Shown: positions 36,608 to 50,091 of the stretch, in pieces
Numbering within the stretch: position 1 is the first letter of the stretch
Layout of the letters: each line of letters opens with the position of its first letter
Assembly: GCA_041576165.1 (NCBI GenBank)
Contig: JBFGLM010000026.1
Coordinates: 1 to 64,000 of the forward strand
Length of the DNA stretch: 64,000 nucleotides
Direction: 5' to 3'
DNA from: Acidimicrobiia bacterium
Lineage (GTDB): Bacteria; Actinomycetota; Acidimicrobiia; Spongiisociales; Spongiisociaceae
Position numbers and translations under genes: made by a program
The notes under the pieces: generated by a model
Databases searched by the model: none
Seen by the model: only the letters and a program-made list of their open reading frames with translations
Told to the model about the DNA's origin: nothing

Positions 36608-38590
36608 TTAGGCCTCGTCTGCGTGGTGACCAAGACCGGCCGCGCCGATTACGGCGAGCTCATCCAAGACCCGCCGTCGGTCCGTAGTGCGGCGGAATGG
36701 GGGCAACGTGCGGATTATGTGCAGTCCGTAACGCTTCGACACCAGACGACGGTCCAGCACCGCTACCACCCCCCGGTCCCGCTCGTGCCGTATGAGCCGG
36801 CCGGCTCCCTGGCAGAGCAGCATGGCTGCCCGGGGCAGATCCACCATTTCGAATGCGGAAAGTCCCTTTGCCTCCGCCGCCTCCCGCCGGGCCTGGTGTA
36901 GTGGATCATCCGGTCGCGCAAATGGAATCTTGTCGAGAATCACGAGCGACAGCGCCGGCCCGGGAACGTCGATACCCTCCCAGAACCCCATCGTGGCAAT
37001 CAACACCGACGTCTCGTCCTCCGCAAACGTGTCCAGCAGCGCCTTCTTGGGCAGCTCGTTCTGCACGAGCACCCGATAGGCCTTCGCCCCCGACAGATGG
37101 TCGGCGAAGCGTCCCATCGCGGCAAAGCTCGTGGTGAGCACCAACGCCCGGCCGCAGGCCGCGTCCACCAGTGCCTCGACCTCACGCTCGGCATCATCGA
37201 TGTACAGCTCGTCTCGGGGATCAGGCAGGTGGGCGGCAATGTAGAGCAATCCTTGGCGTCCGTAGTCGAACGATCCCTCAACCGCCAACGCTCGAAAGGT
37301 CCGGGAGATTTCAGCATCGTCGGGTACGACCGGGTCGTCGTCTAGCGGTTCAGCCGTGTACCCGAGCCGGGATGCGATTGAGTCGAACCTGCCCCCGACG
37401 GTGAGCGTGGCACTTGTGAGCACGGTCGGGACCCGAGTCAAGAGCCCAGCCGCCAGGGAGGTCGAGACCTCTACTGGAGCGACCCGGATAGCCGGCCGGT
37501 GCGGCTCCGCCCAGGCCACGTGGCCGTCCGGGAGCCGGAATGCCTGGTCGATGTCACCGCTGAGGTGGCCTAGCTGAATCTGAACGCGGCTGAGCGGTCC
37601 CACCTCTGGAGCGGTGTCGCCGTCCGGCGTGATCAGTGCCTTTCCCACCAGATCGGCTGCCCGGCGTGCGCTGCGCAATGCGCCTCCGAGCGCGCCGTCG
37701 CCGGGTTGGAGGCGGTCCGGGTTGAGCCCAGCCGCCTGTCGGCGGAACTCCTCTGCGGCGTCGCGAAGCTTGCCAATCGGATCGCTACTCCGCTTCTTCG
37801 GATCGACCAGGCGCTGCGCGTTGTTAGCGAGAGCATGGAACCGGCCCGGGGTCAGCTCTACCCCAAACGCATTGGACAGGGCATCTTCGAGCCGGTGTGC
37901 CTCGTCGAATATCACCAAGTCGCGTTCCGGCAAGATGTTCGCGCCCGAGGCAACGTGCAGTCCGTAGAGGTGGTGGTTGGTCACGATGACGTCGGCTTCG
38001 GCGGCCCGGTCGTGGGCCGCTTCTGCGAAACACACCGTGCCTTGCGGGCAGCGAGCACGCCCCGGGCATTCCATCCCCGACACCGAGATCGTCCGCCAGA
38101 CCAAATCGTCAACCGCTTCCGCCAGATCATCCCGATCTCCGGTGGGATGCCCCCGGGCCCAGTCCACCACCGTCAACAGGGCGTCAGCATCGTCATCCGA
38201 GAAGAGAAGGCCTTCCCCCGCCAGATCAGGCCCGAACCGCTCGGCCAGCTTCGCCATACACGCGTAGGACTGCCGCCCTTTGAGCACCGCATAGGTGAAC
38301 GGCATTTCGAGGTAGCTCTGCAAGAACGGCAGGTCCTGTTCTGCCAGCTGGTTCTGCAGATTCTTGGTGGCGGTGGCGATCACGACCCGGGCGCGCGATG
38401 ACAGCGCCGGCGCCAGGTAGGCCAAAGACTTGCCGGTGCCGGTGCCGGCCTCCACGAGGAGGTGCGTGCGGTCCTCGATGGCGCGAGCGACGGCCCGGGC
38501 CATCCGCTCCTGCCCCGTCCGGGCGAGGGCTCCCGGCTTGTGTGCAAGCACCGAACGAAGGGCGCCAACCGCAGTCTCCTCGAGGGACAT
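36608..38590 (-). CDS. dinG: DinG/YoaA family ATP-dependent DNA helicase
   Basis: EAGTGTGKS, Fe-S cysteines, DEAH, TSATL, FWEGIDVPG, QGAGRLIR. Confidence 0.92.
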   Translation of the reverse strand: MSLEETAVGALRSVLAHKPGALARTGQERMARAVARAIEDRTHLLVEAGTGTGKSLAYLAPALSSRARVVIATATKNLQNQLAEQDLPFLQSYLEMPFTYAVLKGRQSYACMAKLAERFGPDLAGEGLLFSDDDADALLTVVDWARGHPTGDRDDLAEAVDDLVWRTISVSGMECPGRARCPQGTVCFAEAAHDRAAEADVIVTNHHLYGLHVASGANILPERDLVIFDEAHRLEDALSNAFGVELTPGRFHALANNAQRLVDPKKRSSDPIGKLRDAAEEFRRQAAGLNPDRLQPGDGALGGALRSARRAADLVGKALITPDGDTAPEVGPLSRVQIQLGHLSGDIDQAFRLPDGHVAWAEPHRPAIRVAPVEVSTSLAAGLLTRVPTVLTSATLTVGGRFDSIASRLGYTAEPLDDDPVVPDDAEISRTFRALAVEGSFDYGRQGLLYIAAHLPDPRDELYIDDAEREVEALVDAACGRALVLTTSFAAMGRFADHLSGAKAYRVLVQNELPKKALLDTFAEDETSVLIATMGFWEGIDVPGPALSLVILDKIPFARPDDPLHQARREAAEAKGLSAFEMVDLPRAAMLLCQGAGRLIRHERDRGVVAVLDRRLVSKRYGLHIIRTLPPFRRTTDRRRVLDELAVIGAAGLGHHADEA

Positions 38591-38704
38591 GGCGGCGAGT
38601 GTACGGGCAGTTGAGCGTCAGCCGGCCCGGCTCCCGCGCCCGAATCGGCCGCACCCGACTTGAAAGCGGTCCACAATGTCACGGCCGGAAGGCATGATTG
38701 TGGG

Positions 38705-39931
38705 GTGGCCGGACCGAACATCCTGCATGCCGATCTCGACGCTTTCTACGCGTCCGCCGAGCAGCTTCTCCACCCGGAACTGCGCGGAAAGCCGATTGCG
38801 GTTGGCGGCGGCGTGGTTCTGGCGGCCTCGTACGACGCTCGAGCTTTTGGGGTTCGATCAGGAATGGCCGGCTCCCGGGCGCGAGCCCTGTGCCCCAACC
38901 TGAAGTTCGTCACCGGTAGTTTCAGCCGATACCAGGAGCTGGCCGACGAGGTGTTCACGATCTGCGAGGATTTCACCCCGGCGATCGAGCGGATCTCGAT
39001 CGATGAGGCTTTCCTCGACGTCGGCGGCAGCGAGCACCTGTTCGGGCCGGCGGCGGTTATCGCCGACCGCATCCGCTCCAGGGTCCGCACGGAGGTGGGG
39101 CTGCCGGTGAGCGTTGGCGTTGCCTCGACGAAGTTCCTGGCCAAGATCGCGAGCCAGGTGGCCAAGCCGGACGGATTGGTGGTCGTGCCGCCCGGAGAAG
39201 AGTTGGAGTTCCTCCATCCCCTACCCGTCGGCTTGATGTGGGGGGTAGGCGCCGTGACAGGCGAGCGGCTCGCCGAGATGGGGATTCACACGATCGGTGG
39301 TCTGGCCGCGACTCCCGACGACACCCTGCGCCGGATGCTGGGCCGGGCCGCTGGGTCTCATCTACACCGGCTGTCTCGTAACCTCGATCCCCGTCCGGTC
39401 AGGCACCTTCCCCGAGCCAAGTCGGTCGGTTCCCAAAGCGCATTCGGACGCAAAGTCCCTACGCCCGAGCTGGTGGAATCGGTGACGCGCTCACTGGCCG
39501 ACCGGATTGGCCGGAGGCTGCGGGCCAAGAACAACGCCGGCCGCACGATCACCGTGCGGGTGCGCCGGGGAGACATGTCGAGCGTGACCCGGAGCCGCAC
39601 ATACCCCCACCCGATCGCGGCCACCGAGGCGATCGTGCGCATCGCGCGGGCATTGGTGGCAGATGCCCTGGCGGATGGACCTTCCGAGATCAGCTTGATC
39701 GCGATCTCCATTTCGAACCTGACGGCCGGAACTGCGCTGCAGCTCGAGTTGCCACTCGGCGACGACTCGGTGGAACGCCCCGGCAGTGATCGGGGACGGC
39801 GGGCGTGGGACCTGGACCGTTCGGTCGATGCGGTACGGGAGCGGTACGGCAACAAGTCCGTTCGGCCGGCGTCCTTGCTGGACGAAAGGGGGGTTCCGGA
39901 CGAGTTCCGCGAGCTCGCCGAACGCGAATGA
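38705..39931 (+). CDS. dinB: DNA polymerase IV
   Basis: HADLDAFYAS, AASYDAR, SIDEAFLD, AKPDG. Confidence 0.93.
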   Translation: MAGPNILHADLDAFYASAEQLLHPELRGKPIAVGGGVVLAASYDARAFGVRSGMAGSRARALCPNLKFVTGSFSRYQELADEVFTICEDFTPAIERISIDEAFLDVGGSEHLFGPAAVIADRIRSRVRTEVGLPVSVGVASTKFLAKIASQVAKPDGLVVVPPGEELEFLHPLPVGLMWGVGAVTGERLAEMGIHTIGGLAATPDDTLRRMLGRAAGSHLHRLSRNLDPRPVRHLPRAKSVGSQSAFGRKVPTPELVESVTRSLADRIGRRLRAKNNAGRTITVRVRRGDMSSVTRSRTYPHPIAATEAIVRIARALVADALADGPSEISLIAISISNLTAGTALQLELPLGDDSVERPGSDRGRRAWDLDRSVDAVRERYGNKSVRPASLLDERGVPDEFRELAERE

Positions 39932-39934
39932 TCC

Positions 39935-40372
39935 TCAGCCCCGCAGGTGGGCCACCGTGTCGCGCTGAAACCAGCTACGGCGCAGGAGGTACAGCGCCAG
40001 GCCGATCGGACCCACCAGCATCGTCAGGAGCAACGGAATAGCGAGGCGGTATCTCCCGTTGGGAGCGTCCCGCACCATCCAGCCACCGACGAAGAGGTCG
40101 AAGGCCAAGTAGTGGGCCCAGCCGGCGAGGATTGCCCACTCCGAGTCAAACACCCGCATGACAGCATCCACTGAGTGGAAACCCGACCCGGTGGGCAGCC
40201 CCTCCAGCCCGGCGGCCAGCAGAAGCGCAGCGTAGATCAGGCCATACCCGAACCACACGATCGGTTCCCGCGCCAGCCGGACAGACCAGTCACTGCCCGG
40301 TGCCAGGATCCACACCAGCCACACGACCACCGAGAGGGCAGTCATCGCCCCGAATATCAGCTCGAGGCTCAT
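39935..40372 (-). CDS. ABA4-like (DUF4281) membrane protein
   Basis: GWAHYLAFDLFVG and GPIGLALY motifs; start moved to 40372. Confidence 0.85.
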   Translation of the reverse strand: MSLELIFGAMTALSVVVWLVWILAPGSDWSVRLAREPIVWFGYGLIYAALLLAAGLEGLPTGSGFHSVDAVMRVFDSEWAILAGWAHYLAFDLFVGGWMVRDAPNGRYRLAIPLLLTMLVGPIGLALYLLRRSWFQRDTVAHLRG

Positions 40373-40504
40373 GAAGATGCCTGCCCGAACAGGATCATTT
40401 CCGCCATCGCCTCCGTCGCGCTCCGGTCCCGGTTTTGAGCGGAGCCGATCCGGCACAGTACTGCATGAAACCCAGATGCAACCAATTCGCTCTAGCGTGG
40501 CACC

Positions 40505-41167
40505 GTGGCCGGAATTGGCACCCTGAACGAGAGCCCGCTGCACGCCGGCCTGAAGGACTACCTGGCTCGTCCCGGCGACGAATTCGAAGTGCCGCTGGCC
40601 GGGTTTGTCATCGACATTCGTCGGGGCAACGAGTTGCTCGAGATCCAGACGAAGAACTTCGGCAACCTCGCTGCGAAGTTCGACCGGCTCCTCGATCGGT
40701 ACCGACTGACCCTCGTGCACCCAATCGCTGTACAGACCCACATCCGCCGTTCGTCCCGGCCCGACCGGCGCTCTCCTAGAAAGGGCACTGTCCTCCACGT
40801 CTTCGAGGAGCTGGTGAGCATCCCCACCCTCATCGAACATCCACGCTTTGGCCTGCGGGTGATCCTCATCGAAGAGATTCAGGTCCGAGAGCACGCTCCC
40901 GAGCTGCGGCGCAGCCGCGGCGGATGGAGGATCGTCGAGCGGTCACTGGGCGAAGTCGTTGATGACATTGCGATCACTACCGCCTCAGACCTGGCGCAGC
41001 TGCTCCCCGCGAGCCTGCCGGAGCCGTTCACAACGCGGGACTTGGCGGAAGCCGCGTCGATCCCGCGTCGGCTCAGCCAGAAAATGGCGTACTGCCTCCG
41101 CCATCTGAGCGTGATCGAGCCCGGCGGCCGGAAACGGGCCGGCATCCAGTACCGGCGCGTCGGGTGA
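40505..41167 (+). CDS. Conserved hypothetical protein, PD-(D/E)xK nuclease-like with C-terminal HTH
   Basis: IGTLNESPLH..LK, E...G.VIDI....LEIQT, PFTTRDLA. Confidence 0.6.
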   Translation: MAGIGTLNESPLHAGLKDYLARPGDEFEVPLAGFVIDIRRGNELLEIQTKNFGNLAAKFDRLLDRYRLTLVHPIAVQTHIRRSSRPDRRSPRKGTVLHVFEELVSIPTLIEHPRFGLRVILIEEIQVREHAPELRRSRGGWRIVERSLGEVVDDIAITTASDLAQLLPASLPEPFTTRDLAEAASIPRRLSQKMAYCLRHLSVIEPGGRKRAGIQYRRVG

Positions 41168-41200
41168 AGTGGGACCCGCCCGTTGGCTACGGCCGCTCGC

Positions 41201-41494
41201 CTATGCGACCTCGTCCTCCAACCTCCGGTAGCGATCGACGGCCTCCTGCCAGCTGGCGAGCTGGGCGTCTGAGTAGCCATCAATAGTCGCGTCGGTCACG
41301 AGCATGCCGGTGTGCTGGAAGGCGTACACCAGCGCCGGATCAATGCCCAGATCCTCCATGTCGCGCACCACCATCGCCTCAATCTGGCTCGGCAGCGGCT
41401 GCCCTACCCGGGTCAATTGCATCCTGGCCCCCTGTTCGGCCTTCGCGGCGTCCACGGCCCGTTGCCTGTCGTTGTCGTAAACCGCTTCAGCCAT
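41201..41494 (-). CDS. Hypothetical protein
   Basis: Protein-like GIDPALVYAFQHTGMLVT...W..AVDRY; start approximate. Confidence 0.6.
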   Translation of the reverse strand: MAEAVYDNDRQRAVDAAKAEQGARMQLTRVGQPLPSQIEAMVVRDMEDLGIDPALVYAFQHTGMLVTDATIDGYSDAQLASWQEAVDRYRRLEDEVA

Positions 41495-41611
41495 TGCAGA
41501 TCTCTTTCGGAGCATTTCAGCAGGTTCCGCGTGGGCCACGAGACCCATTTCTCGCGGTCCCCGCGGGTCAGACGTCCGCACTGTGGCCGCCGCCGCCACT
41601 CACTGCAGAAA

Positions 41612-42094
41612 TCAGGCTTCGCGGTGCTCGGTGTCTCCGGCCAGCAGGTCGAGTATGTGACCCAGCACCGGTGAGAGCGCGTCGAGCCCGTCCGCCACAC
41701 CCTTGGGACTCCCCGGCAGGTTGACAACCAGAGTCCGCCCCACCACACCGGAGACGCCGCGGGACAATGCCGCCATCGGCGTCTTTTCCAGACCGCGAGC
41801 GCGGATGAGCTCGCTCAGGCCCGGGGCAGACCGATCGATCAACGGCAGGGTTGCCTCGGGTGTGACGTCGCGTGGGCCGAATCCGGTGCCTCCCGTGGTC
41901 ACCACCAAGCCTGCTCCCGCTTGCGCCGCCTGCCTGATCTGGCGCTGGATCTGAATGGTTTCGTCGGGAACCACCGAGCGCACAACATCGAGTCCGAACT
42001 CGGCGAGCCGGCTTTCCAGCAGATCTCCTGAACGGTCGTCCCTGGTGCCGGCGTGGACGCCATCGGAGACGGTCAGTACGTGTGCCATCCTCAT
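41612..42094 (-). CDS. mog: MogA/MoaB molybdenum cofactor biosynthesis protein
   Basis: [36 protein letters not shown]. Confidence 0.92.
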
Positions 42095-42172
42095 ATACCC
42101 GCATGCTACGGGCCCCAGGGAGGGGACCTGACTTTGGCAGAATCTAGAAAGCGACACCAACAAGCCCGCACA

Positions 42173-42200
42173 GAAAACGGGCCGCCCGGCGGCCCGTTTC
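42173..42200 (-). terminator. Intrinsic terminator after the peptide gene
   Basis: Minus strand GAAACGGGCCGC-CGG-GCGGCCCGTTTTCTG. Confidence 0.85.
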
Positions 42201-42226
42201 GGGTTGGGATCATGCTGGTTGGTAGA

Positions 42227-42319
42227 TCAACCCCAGTTGCCAATGTTGGCCAGGGCCGGGGCTGCCGTCGCGGCCACGGCCGCCATTGCCATCAGGATCG
42301 TCACGATTGCGCGTCGCAT
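42227..42319 (-). CDS. 30-aa secreted propeptide MRRAIVTILMAMAAVAATAAPALA|NIGNWG (putative signalling peptide)
   Basis: Own translation, below the ORF-track cutoff. GGAGGTGA RBS at 42324-42331, n/h/c signal-peptide structure with an A-L-A site, TGA at 42227-42229, terminator follows. Confidence 0.8.
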   Translation of the reverse strand: MRRAIVTILMAMAAVAATAAPALANIGNWG

Positions 42320-42429
42320 CACATCACCTCCACCGAGAGCATCTCGAAGCCGTGTCTCCGGGATATCTCAGATGGGACACTCAGAGACCCCGACCTGGGG
42401 CGCGTCGAGCGCATCCGGGGGTGCGTGGT

Positions 42430-45400
42430 TCAGGTGAGATTCCGGGTACCACGGGTGCGGGGGGCGGTCCCGTGGCTGCGCAGCACGCTCAGGTCACGCT
42501 TGATCGTGGCCCGGCTCACGGAGAGAGCCGCTGCGAGATCGTCGATAGTCGGCAACGCTCCTTGGGCGCTGGCCTGGCCGGCCAGCTCGACTATTCCCCG
42601 GCGACGCTCGGCAGGACTCGTACCCAAGAAGTCTCGGTCTAGCACCCAGTCGACCTCCACCAGCTCGTCCGGACGGAGCGGGCGTCCCAGCGGTGCCCGC
42701 CGGTCCGCCAGCGTGACGTGCATCTGCAGCGGCTGCGACACCGACCACCGTGCCTCGATATCGGCGTGCATCGGCACCATGGTGATGGCGTCGCGCTGCT
42801 GCTGACGATCGAGGCCGGCGAGTGCGGAGCGCAACATCATATGAGCTTCAGCAAAGGCGTGCTCGGCCTCTTCGGTCCGCCCCAAGGTTTCGGCGACGAT
42901 CCCATGCAGGTACGGGATCTCCCAAGCCAGCCCCAAACCGGCCCGATCCGCTTGGTGGGCTTGCTGGGACAGCTCCCACGCCCCGGCATCGCCGGTGGCC
43001 GCCCCGATCCGAGCCTCGTATGCCGCCAGCCTGACTTCCAGGTCGGCGGGCGCGTCGAGTTGCGCGCTGCGCACGTCATCCAACGCTGCTTCGAACCGGC
43101 CCAGGTCGAGGTGAGCGCTGGCCCGGGTTGCCAAGGCGTAGGCGCGGCGGCGGTGATTGCCGCTGCGCTCGGCGAGATCGATGGCGGAAGCGAGGAACGA
43201 CCCGGCGCCCGCCTCGTCGCCCGCAGCATGGGCGATGGAGCCCAGGAGTTGCCGGCAGTGAGCCTGCCCGCCCCGATAACCGCTTTCTTCGAAGAATCGC
43301 AAGCTGCTTTCCAGCAGTGTCCAGGCAGTCTGATCATCACCGAGGACCAGGTGCCGGATCATCGCTTCGTTGTTGGCGGCCAGGGCGGCGCCCCGACCAC
43401 GACCAATGGCCTCGAAGGTTCGCCGGGCCTCGGTGAAAGACTCCAGTGCATCGGCAATCTGGCCCATCCCGTACAACGCCAGCCCGGCGTTCGACTGGTT
43501 GAGAGCGCGTCCCGCGGTGTACCCGATCGATTCACACGCGCTGATCGCGGTTTGAAACGCACCGATCGCGTCGGCGCCGTCGCCAAGCTCGACCGAGACA
43601 AGCGCCAATAGGCCCAGCGCCTCGGCTTCTGCCAGCCGGTCTCCGGCCGCCCGGCTGAACTCGAGTGCGCGGGAGAGCTGGGACCGCGCCTCTTCATATC
43701 GCAGGGCCTCGCCCAGCACGCCTCCATACGCGAGTGCGACTTGTATGTCGCCCGGCGCTTGGGCGGCCGCTCTGGCCAGCAGATCCAACGCCGCCCCAGT
43801 GTCTCCCGAATAGTGGCGAGCGCGGCCGGCCACCAGCAAGGCGCGGTGAATCGAAAAACCCAATCGCCCGGCCCGTTCGGCAGCATTGGTGGCGAGGGTG
43901 ATCGCGAGCTCGTATTCGTCCGAGCGAGCCAGGAAGGTGGCCAGCCGGATCTGCGCTTCGATGGCCCGTGGCTCGTCCTCCGCCACCGCCTCGAGCCAGG
44001 CGTCCAGGATCGCACGTTGGGCATCGCGCCGTCCCACCGTGGCCAGAACCGCCTCGTATTCGGCCAGAGCGTCGATCCGCTCCGGCACCTGATCCCCCGG
44101 CCGGAGGCATTCCAGGGCCGCCTCATACAGCTCGGCGGCGGTGGCATAGGCATGGATAGATGCGGCGTCCCGGGCCGCTCGTAGCCAGTGGGCAAAGGCA
44201 CGTTCATCGAATCCTGCCCGGCGCAGGTGGTAGGCGAGCACGGCCGGGTCGGCAAACTCATCGAGCTCGAGGGTTTGGGCGATGACGCGATGAAACCTGG
44301 CGCGGTCCTCCGGCAGCGTCAGGTCGTAGGCGACGCGCCGCCAATGGTCATGGACGAACTCGTAGCCGGTGCCGGATTCGACCACCAGGCGCCGGTTGAT
44401 CAGGCCGATCAGTGACTGCAGCAGGTCGGTCTTGCCAACCTCGCACCATTGGAAAAGCTGATTCGTGGTGGCCGCACCACCGCGCACCGCCAGCGCGCTC
44501 AACAGTTCTCGTTCGACGTCGGTCAGACGATCCAGCCGTTCGGCGATGACCTTTCTCACATCGGCGGTGACCGGGAGCCCGCGCTCGCTGTCCCAGCCGC
44601 CCGTCTCGACGAGCGCCCGCGTCGTCTCGATGACAAACAGCGGGTTGCCGCCGGTGTCACGGTGAATGCGATCTGCCGCAGCGACGGTGGCGCGATCGTC
44701 AGCGGCCGCCCACCTCACCAGCTGCTCGACTTCGCGTGACTCCAACGGCTGCATCGACACGATGGTGCCGCCGCCCCGGTCGAGTTCGCGCAATGTCCCC
44801 CAGACATCGTCACGCGCCCGGCCCTCCATGCTGCGGAAGGCAACGAACATCGAGGCGCGCCGGATCGATGGCGAGTTGGCGAGGCGCCGGACTACTTCGA
44901 TGCTGTCGGCGTCGGCGGCGTGAAGATCGTCGAAGATGATGACGTGCGGTGTGATCCGGCCGAACGCAGCCAGCACGATGGTCAGTGCCTCGATGATGCG
45001 GTCGCGTCCTTCCGGCGAACGCAGCGGCGCCACCGGCCGGATATCGGGTAGCCACTCCACCAGTTGGGGAACCACCCGAGTGACCTCGGCCAGCCACAAC
45101 GGATCGACCTGCTCCTCGAGCTGCGCGGCCCGGAGCTCCGTCATCCCGGCCAGCAGGGTGTCACGGATGACTCCAAACGGCACTGTCGAGCCGGATCGGG
45201 CGGATCCGCGTAAGACGTCAACCCCGCGCCAGGCTGCCGCTTTGGCGATCTCATCTAGGAACCTCGACTTGCCCGACCCTGGCTCGCCCTCGACGAGCAC
45301 CACCGACCCCCGGCCCCCGATGGTCTGGTCGATGGCGTCGATGGCCAGCGCCCGTTCGGCTTGGCGACCGATGAAAGGAGCGATGTCCGGATAGGGCTCC

Positions 45401-46173
45401 ACGGGGCCCTCACTCCGGGCCTCGGACCCGTTGTGGCGCAGCTGTGCGATCTCGTCAAACAACGCCCGGGTTTCGGGTTCCGGCTCTGCCCCAAACTCCT
45501 CGTACAGCAGCTCTTCGAGTTGTTCGTATTGCCGGAGCGCCTCGGCCGGCCGGTTCAGCAGCCGGCACAGCCGCATCACATCGCGGTGGGCCTCCTCCCG
45601 GAGGGGGTTCTGCCACGTCAGCTTCCGGGCGTAGATCAAGGCCTCTTCGGTCGATCCGTTGGCTTTGAGTTCCGAGACCAGACGCGACAGGGCGTGAACG
45701 TAGTCCTCGGCCACCCGGCGCTGTTCCTCTAGGACCCAGTCGTCGTAGAAGCCGTAGAGAAGTTCGCCGCGATACAACTCGACGGCACTGAGCAAATCAC
45801 GGATCGACGACTCCGATGCAGACTCCCCCCGGTGAGCGATCCCGCGATAGAAATCGTCGACGTCGAGTTCGACCTCACACGACTCGGCGATGCTCAGATC
45901 GTCGGCGTCGCTCTTAATCAGATCCCCGTAGCCGACGGGCTCCAGAACTTGGCGGATCCGCCACAGATTCTGGCTGAGCTTGCGGCGGCCGCTGGCCTCG
46001 GTTTCTTCCGGCCAGAACATGCCGACCAGACGGACACGCGCATGGGCCCGATCTCGGTTCAGCAGCAGATAGGCGAGGAGCGAACGGGCAGCGCGCGACG
46101 CCGGCGGTCGAATCGGCTCGCCGGCGCTGAGGAGCTGAAAGCCTCCGAAAAGCTCGACGCGGAGCGGGCTCAC
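42430..46173 (-). CDS. SARP/BTAD - AAA ATPase (STAND-like) - TPR - DUF1670-like HTH regulator
   Basis: LFGGFQL, LYRGELL, PLREEAHR (BTAD); GEPGSGKS; FDDLHAAD; TGGNPLFV; FVHD; TPR-like Ala/Leu helices; C-terminal QGALPTIDDLAAALSVSRATIKRDL...RTRG. Confidence 0.9.
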   Translation of the reverse strand: MSPLRVELFGGFQLLSAGEPIRPPASRAARSLLAYLLLNRDRAHARVRLVGMFWPEETEASGRRKLSQNLWRIRQVLEPVGYGDLIKSDADDLSIAESCEVELDVDDFYRGIAHRGESASESSIRDLLSAVELYRGELLYGFYDDWVLEEQRRVAEDYVHALSRLVSELKANGSTEEALIYARKLTWQNPLREEAHRDVMRLCRLLNRPAEALRQYEQLEELLYEEFGAEPEPETRALFDEIAQLRHNGSEARSEGPVEPYPDIAPFIGRQAERALAIDAIDQTIGGRGSVVLVEGEPGSGKSRFLDEIAKAAAWRGVDVLRGSARSGSTVPFGVIRDTLLAGMTELRAAQLEEQVDPLWLAEVTRVVPQLVEWLPDIRPVAPLRSPEGRDRIIEALTIVLAAFGRITPHVIIFDDLHAADADSIEVVRRLANSPSIRRASMFVAFRSMEGRARDDVWGTLRELDRGGGTIVSMQPLESREVEQLVRWAAADDRATVAAADRIHRDTGGNPLFVIETTRALVETGGWDSERGLPVTADVRKVIAERLDRLTDVERELLSALAVRGGAATTNQLFQWCEVGKTDLLQSLIGLINRRLVVESGTGYEFVHDHWRRVAYDLTLPEDRARFHRVIAQTLELDEFADPAVLAYHLRRAGFDERAFAHWLRAARDAASIHAYATAAELYEAALECLRPGDQVPERIDALAEYEAVLATVGRRDAQRAILDAWLEAVAEDEPRAIEAQIRLATFLARSDEYELAITLATNAAERAGRLGFSIHRALLVAGRARHYSGDTGAALDLLARAAAQAPGDIQVALAYGGVLGEALRYEEARSQLSRALEFSRAAGDRLAEAEALGLLALVSVELGDGADAIGAFQTAISACESIGYTAGRALNQSNAGLALYGMGQIADALESFTEARRTFEAIGRGRGAALAANNEAMIRHLVLGDDQTAWTLLESSLRFFEESGYRGGQAHCRQLLGSIAHAAGDEAGAGSFLASAIDLAERSGNHRRRAYALATRASAHLDLGRFEAALDDVRSAQLDAPADLEVRLAAYEARIGAATGDAGAWELSQQAHQADRAGLGLAWEIPYLHGIVAETLGRTEEAEHAFAEAHMMLRSALAGLDRQQQRDAITMVPMHADIEARWSVSQPLQMHVTLADRRAPLGRPLRPDELVEVDWVLDRDFLGTSPAERRRGIVELAGQASAQGALPTIDDLAAALSVSRATIKRDLSVLRSHGTAPRTRGTRNLT

Positions 46174-46289
46174 GTGTCAAGGCTAGCCACCAAAACGCCG
46201 GCGCTACCAATAGCGACAGAAGATACCGAAAACCCACGGCCGGACGGCCGGCACCGACTCGAGCCATGTGCCTGTGTGAATGCGCGGCC

Positions 46290-46850
46290 CTACTGCAACG
46301 GATCGGCCGTCGCGGCGATGGCCGCCGCATCGAGTTCGGTCTCGGCGTCTCCACTCATCAGCTCGCCCGACGTGTTCTGGATGTGAGCTCGCACGAACCA
46401 CTGGTAGAGCTCGAGTTTGGCGGTCTGACCGGTCAACAAGTCCTCAGTCACAGGATCCCGGTCGCCGGCGAACGCGATGGCCGCCCGGTGATCGCCGATC
46501 ACACCGTCGTAGACCTTGTCGAGCGCAGCGAGGTGCGCCGGCACGACGCCTCGACCCAGGTCATAGTCGTCCCACGTCCGCGTCCGGACGATGTGTCCAG
46601 GTAGCCCATTGGGAATGGCGCCCAAGGTGGCGATGCGCTCGGCCACTTCGTCGGCCATTTCCCTCACCGCAGCTACGTGCTCGTCGAGCATCTCGTGGGC
46701 AGCCATGAAGCCGGGGCCAACCACATTCCAGTGGATGTGCTTGAGCGTCAAGCCGAGATCGATGAGACCGACGAGGCGCTCCTGCAAACGTCCGGTGAGT
46801 TCCTGGGCCACGTCGGCGGCGACTCCGCTCGGCGTGATGGTCGATTCCAT
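46290..46850 (-). CDS. dps: DNA starvation/stationary-phase protection protein Dps
   Basis: KHIHWNVVGPGF..HEMLD, DEVAERIATLG, QWFVRAH; AAAGGA RBS. Confidence 0.93.
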   Translation of the reverse strand: MESTITPSGVAADVAQELTGRLQERLVGLIDLGLTLKHIHWNVVGPGFMAAHEMLDEHVAAVREMADEVAERIATLGAIPNGLPGHIVRTRTWDDYDLGRGVVPAHLAALDKVYDGVIGDHRAAIAFAGDRDPVTEDLLTGQTAKLELYQWFVRAHIQNTSGELMSGDAETELDAAAIAATADPLQ

Positions 46851-46980
46851 GGTTCCGTCCTTTCGGGGTGCGGCACTGGGCAGCTGGTGAGCCTGCCAGA
46901 AGAATGGCGAACGCCTGGGCGCAGACAAATCCACTGGCTGCGCGCTCCCGCCTGCCTCGCCTGTGCATGTTCGGAAGAAC

Positions 46981-47006
46981 CTACCCCACTTGGGGCGGTC
47001 GAAAAC
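46981..47006 (-). promoter_or_regulatory. SigB/SigF-type promoter (dps)
   Basis: GTTT-N16-GGGTAG. Confidence 0.75.
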
Positions 47007-47020
47007 ATCGGGGTTTGGAA

Positions 47021-47395
47021 TCAGGCGGTCGTGGAGCGCGATCCGATCCGAAACTGGACGGCCGGCGTGGCGCCGGTCAGGGAGGTTGAGAAGTCATCCG
47101 TCACTGCGTCGAGCACCATGAGCGACAGCTCATCCTCGTCGAGGTCTGTCACCGCCGCCGATCCGGCCTCCAGCCAGATGTTTACTTCTCCAGGTTGGTG
47201 CTCCAGCCGACACTCGAGCGTCTCCGGCTTCGTCGTCAAGAGCAGCGCGCTCACCTCGCTGACGGCCAGCTCGAGGTCGCTGTAACGGTCGAACCCAAGG
47301 TCCGAGATGGCGGCTGCGTCGGCCGCGACAACCCGTATGATTCGGGCGCTGTTGGCCTCGGCCGGCAGACTCACATAAGTCGTCGTGATGGACAC
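47021..47395 (-). CDS. Degenerate RsbW-like anti-sigma protein
   Basis: LPA....RIIR, DLELAVSEV, LS.MVLDAVTDD; N-box Asn and G-boxes absent. Confidence 0.65.
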   Translation of the reverse strand: MSITTTYVSLPAEANSARIIRVVAADAAAISDLGFDRYSDLELAVSEVSALLLTTKPETLECRLEHQPGEVNIWLEAGSAAVTDLDEDELSLMVLDAVTDDFSTSLTGATPAVQFRIGSRSTTA

Positions 47396-47540
47396 GAACC
47401 GTATACTACGGCGTCCCCACCGGACGGACCCGCAGTGGTTGTGTCGCAATCGATCCCCGGCCCCGGCTACGACGCCGTCATGGATGCGCAGGGAGCCGCG
47501 CGTCCGGGCGCAGACGACACCATGGGCGAAAGCTGCTCCC

Positions 47541-47918
47541 GTGGCTGAAGGGGCCACCCAGTCTTACCGGCTCGAGATCGGCGCGGGTGCCGCCTCGCTG
47601 TCCACGGCGCGCCTGTTCGTGCGGGCGGTGATCGGAACATTGGGTTTGGGCGACGAGCTGGCCGACGACCTCAAGCTGGCTGTGTCAGAGGCTCTCACCG
47701 CGCTCATCACGGCTGGCGCGGCACCGCGGGCCGTGGTCGTCATAGACCCGGACGCGCGAACGCTGAGTGTTGGCCCGCTGCGACCGAGCGATCTACCGGA
47801 AGGGTCAGACGGACATGAGATCATCGCCGCGCTTTTCGACCGTGTCAGCCATGACGAACAGACAAGCCGGTTGGTGATCCCGCTCGACGCGTCACGTAGC
47901 GCAGTCGACAGTGGGTGA
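47541..47918 (+). CDS. Degenerate RsbW-like anti-sigma protein
   Basis: STARLFV, DDLKLAVSEA, G.EIIAALFD; overlaps the start of the sigma gene. Confidence 0.7.
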   Translation: MAEGATQSYRLEIGAGAASLSTARLFVRAVIGTLGLGDELADDLKLAVSEALTALITAGAAPRAVVVIDPDARTLSVGPLRPSDLPEGSDGHEIIAALFDRVSHDEQTSRLVIPLDASRSAVDSG

Positions 47919-48636
47919 CGAACTCGACCTCTTCGCCCGGCGCGACGAGCCGGATGCCCTCGCCGAGCTGGCCCGACGTTACGACGACCTGGCCACCCGG
48001 CTGGCGCTGCGTTTCCGGGGTCGGGGCCAGTCTTTCGACGATCTTGCCCAGGTCGCCAGGCTGGGGCTCCTCAACGCCATCGACCGTTTCGACGTGGACC
48101 GGGGCGTGACCTTCGCCACTTTTGCAACCCGCACGATCGTGGGAGTCCTCAAACGTCACCTGCGGGACAAGGCGTGGGCGGTTCGAGTCCCGCGCGCTTT
48201 GCAGGAACGCTGGCTGGAAGTCAATCAGGCGGTCCAGGATCTCAGCCAGAAGCTGGGCAGATCACCGACGCTGCGTGAGATCGGAGCGGCCGTGAACCTG
48301 GATGTCGAGGATGTGATCGAAGCGCTCGAAGCAGGCGGGGCATTCAGCGCAAGCTCGGTCGACGCTCCTCCCGCCGCGGATGACGAGGGTTTGTCGCTGG
48401 CGGACACATTGGGGGGAGAGGATCCGCTGTTCCAGCACAGTACGGATCGCGTCGCCCTCAGCGAGCTCATGGCGGGTCTCCCAGAACGTGAACGGTCGAT
48501 CCTCTACAAGCGCTTCTACGAAGGCAAGACCCAATCCGAAATCGCCGATGATCTCGCCATCTCACAAATGCACGTATCCCGCCTGCTCAGATCGACGCTC
48601 GCGACGTTGCGGGCGGGATTGGTCGGACAGGACTGA
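47911..48636 (+). CDS. SigB/SigF/SigG family RNA polymerase sigma factor
   Basis: DDLAQVARLGLLNAIDRFD, LKRHLRDKAW.VRVPR, TQSEIA..L.ISQMHVSRLL. Confidence 0.93.
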   Translation: MGDELDLFARRDEPDALAELARRYDDLATRLALRFRGRGQSFDDLAQVARLGLLNAIDRFDVDRGVTFATFATRTIVGVLKRHLRDKAWAVRVPRALQERWLEVNQAVQDLSQKLGRSPTLREIGAAVNLDVEDVIEALEAGGAFSASSVDAPPAADDEGLSLADTLGGEDPLFQHSTDRVALSELMAGLPERERSILYKRFYEGKTQSEIADDLAISQMHVSRLLRSTLATLRAGLVGQD

Positions 48637-48646
48637 CCAGTCTGCG

Positions 48647-49102
48647 TCAGCTCGGATCGGAGCGTGGAACAAACTCGGCCGCCACGCGCCACTTGGGTCC
48701 CCTGTGAACGACCATGACATCGGATAGACGCTCGGCGATTTCGAGTCCATACCCGCCTCGCCCGGGGACCACGTCGCGGGCCCCGGCTCCTTGATCTGAC
48801 ACTTCCACCCGGAGTCGGTTCTGGTGGATTCCGGCAGCGAGTTTCAGTGTGGCGCCGGGCCGTGACCCATGAATCACTGCGTTGGAAACAAGCTCGCTGA
48901 CGGCCAGCTCAGCTCGTTCCACCAGTTCGGTTGGTGAATCCTCAGCGACCCCTCGGATGAAACGGCGCGCGCGGCGAGGCGCCCAGCGATCTGCCCGCAG
49001 GGAGATCGTCTCGAGTGCAGCATGCTCGTCGGTTTGTCGAGTTTCACCAGAACACATCGAAGTGGTGCCGACCGGCGCTGTGCATTCGTGCGATGCCATC
49101 AT
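48647..49102 (-). CDS. RsbW-like ATP-binding protein (HATPase_c_2)
   Basis: ARRF, SELVSNAVIHG, VSDQGAG, GGYGL. Confidence 0.85.
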   Translation of the reverse strand: MMASHECTAPVGTTSMCSGETRQTDEHAALETISLRADRWAPRRARRFIRGVAEDSPTELVERAELAVSELVSNAVIHGSRPGATLKLAAGIHQNRLRVEVSDQGAGARDVVPGRGGYGLEIAERLSDVMVVHRGPKWRVAAEFVPRSDPS

Positions 49103-49143
49103 TGCCTCAACGTCGCTCTACGACCAAGTCTATTGCGATAGAT

Positions 49144-49169
49144 ATGCCCGCAGGTCCGGGATTCCAAAC
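49144..49169 (-). promoter_or_regulatory. SigB/SigF-type promoter
   Basis: GTTT-N16-GGGCAT. Confidence 0.65.
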
Positions 49170-49197
49170 GTGGTGGGCGTTCTTCGGGAGTGTGGCG

Positions 49198-49223
49198 GTT
49201 TCGAACCCGATCGGCCAGGGTAG
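49198..49223 (+). promoter_or_regulatory. SigB/SigF-type promoter (mscS)
   Basis: GTTT-N16-GGGTAG. Confidence 0.75.
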
Positions 49224-49251
49224 GCCAGCAGCAAAGAAGGGGAGGACAAAC

Positions 49252-50091
49252 ATGCATATCGAACTGTCCCAAGCCACGCCCGACGTAAACGTCGAGAGTC
49301 TCCAGGAGTTGGGTGCCCTCACTCTGTCCGACTGGCTGTGGGCCGGCGGACTGATGCTGGGCTTTTTGCTGGCTGCCGTGCTGGTCCGGCGTGGAATCGT
49401 CAAAGCGCTCACCCCGAACGTGACGCCGTTCGTGGCAAAGCTCCTTGCGCGATTGGCCGGAGCCGTCGTGTTTTTGTTCGGGCTCGTGTACGCGTTGCAG
49501 CAGGTCGGTGTATCGATCGCCCCATTGCTTGGCGTTGCCGGCTTGTTCGGTTTGGCGCTGGCGTTTGCATTCCAGGAAGTGCTGGAGAACTTCATCGCCG
49601 GTGTCTTCATGTCGATTCGCCGTCCATTCTCAGACGGCGACGAGATCTCCACCGCCGGCTTCGAAGGGGTTGTCGAGGACATCCGGCTGCGGGCTGTCAC
49701 CCTGCGCACCTTCGACGGCGAGCGGGTGTATGTGCCGAACGGCTCGGTATGGAGGAACCCGATCGTCAACCACACCGAGTACGACACTCGCCGTACGACC
49801 CTCGAAGTTGGCGTCGCCTATGACGCCGATCTGGAGGCCGTGGGCGAGCTCCTGACAGAGACGCTGGCCGGCGTGCCCGGGGTGCATTCCGAACCGGCGC
49901 CGCAAGCGTATGCCTTCGAGTTCGGCGACTCGAGTATCAACTTTGCCCTCCGCTTCTGGCACGATGCGCCGATCGCATCGGTCTGGAGGGTCCGAGACGC
50001 GGTCACCAAGGCGGTGCATGACAAACTCGGCGAGGCCGGGATCGACATTCCCTTTCCCCAGCGGGTCGTCGAGCTCACCGGAGGTCAGTGA
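49252..50091 (+). CDS. mscS: Small-conductance mechanosensitive channel
   Basis: ALAFAFQEVLENFIAG, RPF..GD.I, VPN, FGDSSINF, IDIPFPQR. Confidence 0.9.
   Translation: MHIELSQATPDVNVESLQELGALTLSDWLWAGGLMLGFLLAAVLVRRGIVKALTPNVTPFVAKLLARLAGAVVFLFGLVYALQQVGVSIAPLLGVAGLFGLALAFAFQEVLENFIAGVFMSIRRPFSDGDEISTAGFEGVVEDIRLRAVTLRTFDGERVYVPNGSVWRNPIVNHTEYDTRRTTLEVGVAYDADLEAVGELLTETLAGVPGVHSEPAPQAYAFEFGDSSINFALRFWHDAPIASVWRVRDAVTKAVHDKLGEAGIDIPFPQRVVELTGGQ

Follow-up and report, generated by a model that had tools for sequence, protein, structure and literature searches.

Analysis of a 64-kb stretch of DNA from an uncultured Acidimicrobiia bacterium (positions 1 to 64,000 of contig JBFGLM010000026.1, forward strand; hereafter the window) revealed a two-gene module, in which a gene for a large regulator is followed on the same strand by a small open reading frame (ORF) of 30 codons. 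Comparison of homologous loci leaves little doubt that the small ORF is a real, conserved and translated gene, whose product has an export-signal-like leader and a selected short tail. As to its function, we lean towards the reading in which the tail would be the ligand of the tetratricopeptide repeat (TPR) sensor of the regulator in a cell-to-cell signalling loop, i.e. an exported autoinducer that is re-imported, with the regulator driving the peptide gene.

The ATG of the small ORF lies 110 nt past the stop codon of the regulator gene (coordinates of all features are collected in Table 1); an alternative in-frame GTG one codon upstream would give a product of 31 aa. The ORF is preceded by a GGAGG Shine-Dalgarno sequence and followed by a terminator hairpin, which is predicted to close a one-gene peptide transcript ahead of the next gene. 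The whole 81-nt terminator stretch folds with z = −1.79, and 8 of 200 shuffled sequences fold equally well; the hairpin was missed by a simple scan because its U-rich run falls short of the T-run rule applied there (5 T in 8). The small ORF, the Shine-Dalgarno sequence, the terminator and the 110-nt gap were all present where a preliminary description of this DNA, made from the sequence alone, had placed them. No NCBIfam match was found for the 30-aa product. Contigs X5 and X6 of two further studies span the small ORF without differences and are therefore uninformative on selection, and contigs X7 and X8 are only fragments.

The regulator has the architecture of large SARPs, or AfsR-type STAND proteins: an N-terminal SARP part (an OmpR-type winged helix-turn-helix (wHTH) plus BTAD), a central P-loop NOD/AAA ATPase and a C-terminal TPR sensor, here followed by a DeoR-like helix-turn-helix (HTH). 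Pfam matches above cut-off were obtained for BTAD (4e-22), AAA_16 (3e-19) and TPR_12 (3e-17), with HTH_DeoR just passing (24 bits, cut-off 21) and Trans_reg_C staying under its cut-off (20 bits against 26.2). The wHTH-BTAD-AAA-TPR-HTH order given in the preliminary description is thus correct, while its DUF1670 label is weak (16.9 bits, cut-off 25), and C-terminal DeoR-like HTH is the better label. Across 53 sequences, the Walker A residues G299 and G301 of the NOD do not vary, and K302 is retained in at least 90%. The sole solved relatives detected by sequence search of the PDB were the SARP domains of AfsR and EmbR, matching residues 7–245 with E values of 1e-12 to 1e-10. The NCBIfam AfsR equivalog NF053617 scored 66.1 bits against a cut-off of 1430, with the match confined to residues 3–244 in the SARP part, and on this evidence the regulator is not an AfsR orthologue. 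An anti-phage (Avs-like) STAND system was considered and rejected, as PADLOC gave two matches only, both to short stretches (E ~8e-4, 17 bits). Among 40 peptide-linked regulators the mean pairwise identity was 0.51 for the SARP part, 0.52 for the C-terminal HTH, 0.39 for the NOD and 0.365 for the TPR domain. Both DNA-binding domains are therefore the most conserved parts and the TPR domain the least, which fits a conserved promoter box combined with a diversifying sensor.

A first protein search covered 41 related genomes and revealed full-length homologues of the regulator, with 32–38% identity, in 8 of 16 genomes that belong to the same order but to different families; locus L006, with 2 nt of downstream DNA, and L009, a partial match, were dropped. 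At all eight first loci with downstream DNA an ORF of about 30 codons was found on the same strand, 78–133 nt past the regulator. GTDB species genomes were also scanned, and the best 80 of 373 relatives were kept. Nearly all of these 80 come from metagenome-assembled genomes labelled Acidimicrobiia or Actinomycetota; the other labels are Nitriliruptorales and Chloroflexota (some each) and, for a few bins, Acidobacteria or Gammaproteobacteria. After removal of 27 loci without usable downstream DNA (26 lacking the 3′ end of the regulator gene, plus L029 with 183 nt downstream) and merging of 4 duplicates, the set comprised 57 unique loci, the window's among them. ORFs of 23–42 codons were scored as propeptide-like if they encoded a basic residue close to the start, a hydrophobic core free of charges, and a small-x-small motif with 4–9 residues after it. 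Such an ORF was present on the same strand, within 330 nt, at 43 of the 57 loci. The presence of small signal-peptide ORFs next to homologous regulators had been named in the preliminary description as a test of its proposal, and the outcome supports it.

Controls were treated by the same rule. The opposite strand of the same loci yielded propeptide-like ORFs at 0 of 57, mononucleotide shuffles in 12 of 1140 cases, and stretches past long ORFs in the window's genome in 114 of 4043 (2.8%). When a Shine-Dalgarno sequence was required in addition, 13 of the 4043 control stretches passed, the window's own among them, and by eye the window's ORF was the sole convincing signal peptide of the 13. Features outside the selection rule point the same way: a Shine-Dalgarno sequence precedes 42 of the 43 propeptide ORFs, as against 37 of the 433 remaining start-like triplets within these regions; ATG is the start codon in 39 of the 43, and most encode Pro at position −4 (see below). 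The notion that the small ORF is a chance frame in a G+C-rich intergenic region, or within a regulatory RNA, draws on the 114 passing control stretches and on the absence of the window's exact peptide from a 15-billion-protein collection, which means that no gene caller recorded it. It is nevertheless close to refuted by the 43 of 57 loci set against a 2.8% background, the empty opposite strand, the near-universal Shine-Dalgarno sequence and conservation at the codon level. Rfam, moreover, gave no gathering-score match in window positions 42100–42500, where two weak matches to eukaryotic or viral families fell far under their cut-offs, and 5 of 8 looked-up related peptides are recorded as proteins in public data, either unnamed or as 'hypothetical protein'.

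The propeptides share a common layout, with 23–25 signal-peptide-like residues followed by a variable tail of 5–7 residues (6 in 30 loci, 7 in 12 and 5 in 1). The signal-peptide pattern was recognized in the 43 loci by our own rule and by eye. In the c-region, position −4 is Pro in 35 ORFs, and Ala occupies −3 in 37 and −1 in 40. The selection rule itself asked for small residues at the latter two positions, which detracts from the support they lend to an exported signal; it did not ask for Pro at −4. For the serines of identical tails, codons from both families are used. The synonymous share of codon differences is 0.60–0.67 in the c-region and 0.27–0.49 in the h-region, which varies freely yet remains hydrophobic. 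Of the 15 public proteins that form one cluster at 90% identity, 14 have the same tail, and 9 signal-peptide columns vary compared to one tail residue in one member. Judged from these codon and residue patterns, the tails are under protein-level selection. Two systems with different tails can occur in one genome, as in G034 (L002 and L010) and likewise in the records behind L028 and L042 and behind L013 and L030. Two other explanations of a short ORF at this place were rejected: an attenuation leader peptide because of the ORF's own terminator and the conserved features of export-signal type, and a RiPP precursor because no modification enzymes are adjacent.

In a single case, L023, the tail is encoded without a leader. 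The ORF, which fails the propeptide criteria, consists of a start codon, the tail of its clade and two or three residues; the locus retains the promoter box described below, the −10 hexamer and the Shine-Dalgarno sequence, and falls inside the clade of its tail family. Since L023 keeps the tail and not the signal peptide, the tail appears to be the part retained by selection. This locus also bears on the possibility that the product is an uncleaved membrane micro-protein, whose hydrophobic anchor would hold the tail outward and tether or modulate another membrane component. A product of 30 residues with one hydrophobic helix and a positive N-terminus would suit such a role, and a pre-peptide of this length is short and unusual for Sec export, which also tells against an exported signal. 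We consider a membrane micro-protein distinctly improbable: L023 has no helix, the h-region is free to evolve while the c-region motif and the tail are kept, and an extracellular tail could not co-vary by contact with a cytoplasmic TPR domain.

The space between the two genes contains two 7-nt direct repeats with an 11-nt period, followed by a −10-like hexamer 9 nt past the second repeat as delimited here. The pattern has a single match in the 64-kb window. According to the available passages of the AfsR structure paper (PMC10936776), SARP targets consist of direct repeats spaced by 11 or 22 bp, the distance between the 3′ repeat and the −10 element being 8 bp; by sequence the window site has this geometry, its repeats lying one helical turn apart. 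Equivalent sites, with repeats at an 11-nt period and a fixed distance to a −10-like hexamer, were found in 44 loci. In the matrix derived from these 44 sites, conservation is seen for a T preceding the first repeat and, within the −10 hexamer, for A in position 2 and T in position 6; the sites had been located via the repeats, and the conserved T and the hexamer A and T played no part in locating them. When the 5.1-Mb genome was scanned with the matrix, the window site came out highest with 34.3 bits, a score that is not independent since the matrix includes this site, and C14:14052 came second with 30.9 bits. The third-best site reached 18.6 bits and the maximum in a reversed-genome control was 18.3. 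Two further strict-pattern matches in the whole genome both lay within coding sequence and were set aside. We consider it probable that the peptide gene is driven by a SARP-type promoter, and we infer that the box is bound by the SARP domain of the regulator.

The second site makes a structured RNA the sole other strong target candidate of the regulator in the window's genome. This RNA of ~130 nt follows the C14 box, folds with z = −4.07 and has its own terminator; it sits between a gene for an SLH/PKD surface protein and a XerC-like recombinase gene. No Rfam family matched the RNA, and a search of 40 relatives yielded no copy of it. The C14 site is preceded by a copy of a third conserved element of 12 nt, which at other loci lies 33–36 nt upstream of the first repeat and frequently shares bases with the regulator's stop codon. 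Allowing up to 2 mismatches, the third element is present at 20 of 44 sites compared to 1.5% of shuffles, the pattern having been derived from the same sequences; in the window it is weak (near 42393–42406, minus strand). It could be a site for the C-terminal HTH or for a further SARP protomer.

When 53 regulators were placed on a tree with FastTree, each tail family was specific to a clade. The window regulator stands on a long branch, and its pairing with L008 was flagged as unreliable by the program. The regulators of L064, L078 and L082 were excluded from the protein alignments, the tree and the Mantel tests, while their peptide ORFs were still counted. Stops or frame changes number 1, 7 and 7 in the respective tblastn ranges, with the peptide ORFs intact, and may reflect long-read assembly errors or decaying genes. 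Clade-specific tails are expected from co-inheritance alone, and partial Mantel tests were therefore run. Similarity of tails was correlated with similarity of the TPR domain given the rest of the protein (partial r = 0.26, 1 of 2000 permutations as high) or given the NOD (0.30, 0 of 2000), whereas no correlation was left between tail and NOD given the TPR domain (−0.03, 1367 of 2000). Within the TPR domain the signal lay in residues 891–1130, for which partial r was 0.41–0.49 (0 of 2000 permutations) when either the NOD or the remaining half of the TPR domain was controlled for, as compared to 0.01 for residues 650–890 given the NOD (821 of 2000). A sliding window showed a plateau from about 841 to 1160 with a maximum at 881–960. 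Two properties of these tests reduce the support they give to a peptide ligand: permutation counts overstate significance when, as here, the sequences are related, and the halving of the TPR domain was our own choice in a set of eight partial tests. With these qualifications, the tests indicate that tail similarity tracks the C-terminal TPR half and not the ATPase domain, which bears out the peptide/TPR co-variation suggested in the preliminary description.

An AlphaFold2 model of residues 642–1247, made with a 50-row alignment, reached a mean predicted local distance difference test (pLDDT) score of 94.9 and superseded a poor single-sequence model (pLDDT 52). The modelled fold is a superhelix of ~27 helices, then a beta hairpin, then a three-helix HTH. 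Foldseek matches to the TPR model were TPR superhelices of a generic kind; many of these structures hold a short linear peptide or a C-terminal tail, among them LGN, APPBP2 (with a degron), Tom70/71 and OGT. The model thus suggests that the TPR fold suits peptide binding, and nothing beyond that. Up to rank 50, the listed Foldseek matches included no RRNPP receptor, and no RRNPP chain was found at E ≤ 0.01 in the PDB sequence search with the regulator. Prediction of a complex between TPR residues 640–1180 (53-row alignment) and the whole 30-aa pre-peptide, not the mature tail, gave a score of 0.01 with a mark of 0.32.

From these data the following scheme can be proposed for the autoinducer reading. 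The SARP domain would bind the two direct repeats, which overlap the −35 region of the intergenic promoter, and activate a very short transcript made up of the promoter, the Shine-Dalgarno sequence, 30 codons and the terminator. The product would be a Sec-type pre-peptide, which signal peptidase I would cut after Pro-Ala-x-Ala, freeing an unmodified peptide of 5–7 residues outside the cell. Accumulated peptide would be taken up by an oligopeptide permease and bind the C-terminal half of the TPR sensor. Binding would lift STAND auto-inhibition, so that the peptide gene is turned on together with a small number of further promoters; the structured RNA at C14 would be the additional output in the window's genome. 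Export, the cleavage site, import, binding and the sign of the response are steps that we infer, and the possibility of inhibition instead of activation weighs against the scheme.

In 12 loci a histidine kinase gene (HisKA + HATPase_c) directly follows the peptide gene on the same strand. In those clades the kinase may be an output of the system or its true sensor, and the latter case would count against a TPR-bound autoinducer. It would agree with the peptide being an output only that acts extracellularly. Its targets would then be a membrane or neighbouring histidine kinase or other species, or it would serve as a small bioactive peptide, with the TPR domain sensing some other ligand. Secreted secondary products are classical SARP targets, peptide–TPR binding is itself a proposed step, and the kinases of L031 and L037 have, by eye, hydrophobic N-terminal segments. 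We nevertheless consider such an output-only role unlikely. The kinases of the largest clade begin with a soluble N-terminus of ~120 residues and no obvious membrane segment (by eye), while the window and most loci have no kinase at all, the peptide gene being followed there by a terminator and an unrelated gene. Nor would an output-only peptide be expected to follow the C-terminal TPR half after control for the NOD or the other TPR half, or to survive as a bare tail in L023, and no modification enzymes are nearby.

MalT-type STAND activators combine an NTPase with a helical-repeat sensor, and binding of a small inducer releases their effector DNA-binding domain. MalT differs from the regulator described here in having a LuxR-type C-terminal effector and in sensing maltotriose, a ligand that is not encoded by an adjacent gene. 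In gene order and feedback logic the closest known analogue appears to be AfsR-AfsS of Streptomyces, where afsS lies directly downstream of afsR, is activated via the afs box, and encodes a 63-aa product that binds AfsR and strengthens its DNA binding (passages of PMC10832544). Both systems have the SARP-NOD-TPR order, a small gene immediately downstream on the same strand, and before it a box of direct repeats, whose period is 11 bp and whose distance to the −10 element is ~8 bp. AfsS, however, is a cytoplasmic protein with internal repeats, while the products here are pre-peptides of 29–35 aa with an export signal and a 5–7-aa tail; this distinction was drawn from such features (30 aa, signal-peptide-bearing) and not from a direct sequence comparison. 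The regulator differs from AfsR in its extra C-terminal HTH, and the module is found in Acidimicrobiia instead of Streptomyces. In AfsR the NOD and TPR parts inhibit the SARP domain, and the passages of the structure paper available to us discuss activation via ATP and phosphorylation only (PMC10936776).

The AfsS precedent, in which the small product binds its regulator inside the cell (PMC10832544, in part), suggests a cell-autonomous alternative, with the TPR domain binding the pre-peptide tail before export. The circuit would then be an AfsS-like internal feedback or, in a variant where export removes the ligand, a sensor of secretion load that reports Sec capacity and not cell density. 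The co-variation of tail and TPR domain is equally compatible with this, the tail of L023 is made without a signal peptide, and the top structural neighbours include TPR proteins that bind short C-terminal tails, such as 8jal (APPBP2 + degron) and 3lca (Tom71 + Hsp70 tail), though the likeness is that of generic TPR folds. What makes a cell-autonomous circuit rather improbable is the strictly kept cleavable c-region (Pro −4 and Ala −1, counts above), which would have no role internally; several orthogonal tails per genome would also suit intercellular signalling better.

In signalling logic, the autoinducer reading comes closest to the RRNPP systems of Bacillota and their phages, of which Rap-Phr, NprR-NprX, PlcR-PapR, PrgX, Rgg-SHP and AimR-AimP were compared. 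As in those systems, there is by sequence a cytoplasmic TPR-type receptor and an adjacent small gene for a putatively exported pro-peptide with a short C-terminal signal, the tails are clade-specific 'pherotypes', and several orthogonal systems may share a genome. The leaderless ORF of L023 recalls the streptococcal leaderless communication peptides (abstract of PMC10518010). RRNPP receptors, however, are 300–450-aa HTH-TPR proteins without an NTPase, the N-terminal part being an HTH or a phosphatase-interaction domain, whereas the receptor here has 1247 aa and joins a STAND ATPase to a SARP effector; the pro-peptide is shorter, with the tail straight after the signal-peptidase site of a 24-residue signal and no pro-region, and the phylum is different. 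The module would thus work like an RRNPP system without being a member of that family, whose receptor architecture it lacks. The RRNPP-like pairing drawn in the preliminary description holds as far as the adjacent propeptide gene and the different receptor architecture go, while AfsR-AfsS, the closest analogue in gene order, was not mentioned there; also missing from it were the SARP-type direct-repeat promoter before the peptide gene and a Chloroflexota clade that has the regulator and the box without a propeptide. Searches of the PMC open subset and bioRxiv brought up no account of a pro-peptide gene that forms a pair with a SARP or STAND receptor, subscription journals and supplementary files being outside that scope.

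A number of further observations weigh against the autoinducer reading. In the protein search the regulator was found in none of the 24 other genomes of the window's own family, and no RNA runs covering window positions 41800–42900 were listed. The propeptide criteria failed at 14 of the 57 loci. Among loci labelled Chloroflexota a propeptide was present in 0 of 10 and the box in 8 of 10, elements of this clade being looked at within ~400 nt past the regulator stop. An unrelated conserved ORF of 67–95 aa with no Pfam match follows the box in L061, L074, L079, L081 and L083, and L050, a Chloroflexota-labelled locus with the box, has a 712-aa ORF instead. In L018 and L041 neither box nor propeptide was found, L080 has a looser propeptide candidate only, and L017 and L020 carry two tandem boxes ~220 nt apart, each with the third element, and no propeptide. 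Finally, one peptide-bearing clade (L002, L012, L013, L043 and L076) lacks the common box and seems to have other conserved motifs.

Some variant loci have further peculiarities. Nothing comparable to the ORFs listed above was found behind the box of L077 and L085. At several Chloroflexota-labelled loci a G+C-rich hairpin with a T-run comes right after the −10 hexamer. Between the boxes of L017 and L020 lies a different short conserved stretch, possibly a cysteine-rich mini-ORF or an RNA; Rfam gave no match in L017, L020, L079 or L083. The clade lacking the common box shares genomes with common-box systems (L002 with L010 in G034), and differing boxes would insulate two systems in one genome at the DNA level too.

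Intracellularly sensed peptide signalling is regarded as a speciality of Bacillota, and the RRNPP_detector paper describes the signals of Actinomycetota as typically small molecules (PMC10075063, in the passages available). As a tentative generalization, Acidimicrobiia and some other Actinomycetota may use encoded, unmodified peptides of 5–7 residues as signals, with the TPR domain of an AfsR-type STAND activator as receptor. Such systems would form a peptide quorum-sensing class of an origin separate from RRNPP, with many orthogonal pherotypes, sometimes two per genome, would provide the first known class of ligand for the TPR sensors of large SARPs, and would, in the window's genome, have a small structured RNA as a further output. 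The module bears both on the view of peptide signalling as a Bacillota trait and on the question of what AfsR-type TPR sensors perceive. Its putative ligand is legible in the genome, its promoter is defined and specificity variants occur naturally, which brings the two points within reach of tests with a synthetic hexapeptide, one purified domain and one reporter. The module also points to cell–cell communication in an abundant and mostly uncultured class of marine and soil bacteria. A search rule is gained as well (a large SARP, then the box, then a 30-codon signal-peptide ORF), and such genes are often missed by annotation pipelines.

Table 1. Positions of the module, its parts, neighbouring genes and features at related loci. 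Positions refer to the window unless a locus is named.
Feature	Position	Strand	Basis or remark
Regulator gene, 1247 aa	42430-46173	-	ORF list, translation, Pfam, NCBIfam and PDB sequence matches
SARP DNA-binding/activation domain, residues 1-250	45424-46173	-	BTAD at 113-242; AfsR chains align to 8-245
NOD/STAND ATPase, residues 260-640	44254-45396	-	AAA_16 at 266-437; Walker A
TPR sensor domain, residues 650-1130	42784-44226	-	TPR_12; AlphaFold2 model
C-terminal half of TPR sensor, residues 891-1130	42784-43503	-	Part co-varying with peptide tail (partial Mantel tests)
C-terminal three-helix HTH, residues 1186-1245, beta hairpin before it	42439-42618	-	HTH_DeoR; model
HTH helices in the 606-residue model	546-562, 569-575, 580-592 (model numbering)		Model
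Hairpin strands in the 606-residue model	508-516, 530-537 (model numbering)		Model
Two 7-nt direct repeats, 11-nt period (SARP-type box)	42353-42370	-	Intergenic space between the two genes
-10-like hexamer	42338-42343	-	Read from sequence
Shine-Dalgarno GGAGG, 7 nt ahead of ATG	42327-42331	-	Read from sequence
Small ORF, 30 aa	ATG at 42319, stop 42227-42229	-	Read from sequence
Signal-peptide-like part, 24 codons	42248-42319	-	Basic n-region, hydrophobic h-region, c-region ending Pro-Ala-x-Ala
Six-codon tail (proposed mature peptide)	42230-42247	-	Read from sequence
Terminator hairpin, 12 bp, 3-nt loop, G+C-rich, then U-rich run	42174-42200	-	RNA fold
Box and structured RNA, candidate further target	C14:14020-14250 of G000 (L094:6020-6250)	+	
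Leaderless form of peptide gene	L023:7783-7900	+	Single case
Tandem boxes	L017:7493-7800	+	
Tandem boxes	L020:7221-7520	+	
Histidine kinase gene (example)	L024:6415-7437		
Histidine kinase gene (example)	L032:8141-9154		
Histidine kinase gene (example)	L049:8117-9136		
Histidine kinase gene (example)	L067:8250-9281		
Histidine kinase gene (example)	L082:8104-9135		
Histidine kinase gene (example)	L019:6632-7915		
Histidine kinase gene (example)	L031:4014-5054		
DinG-like helicase	36608-38590	-	
DinB-type polymerase	38660-39931	+	
ABA4-like protein	39935-40894	-	
Ferritin-like protein	46290-46934	-	
Sigma-70 family factor	47911-48636	+	
MscS channel	49015-50091	+	

The neighbours of the module, which were considered over window positions 36608–50091, have no evident link to it, and no anomaly of base composition was detected around the cassette. 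The genome encodes 8 SBP_bac_5 and 2 Peptidase_S26 genes, which are candidates for the import and export machinery.

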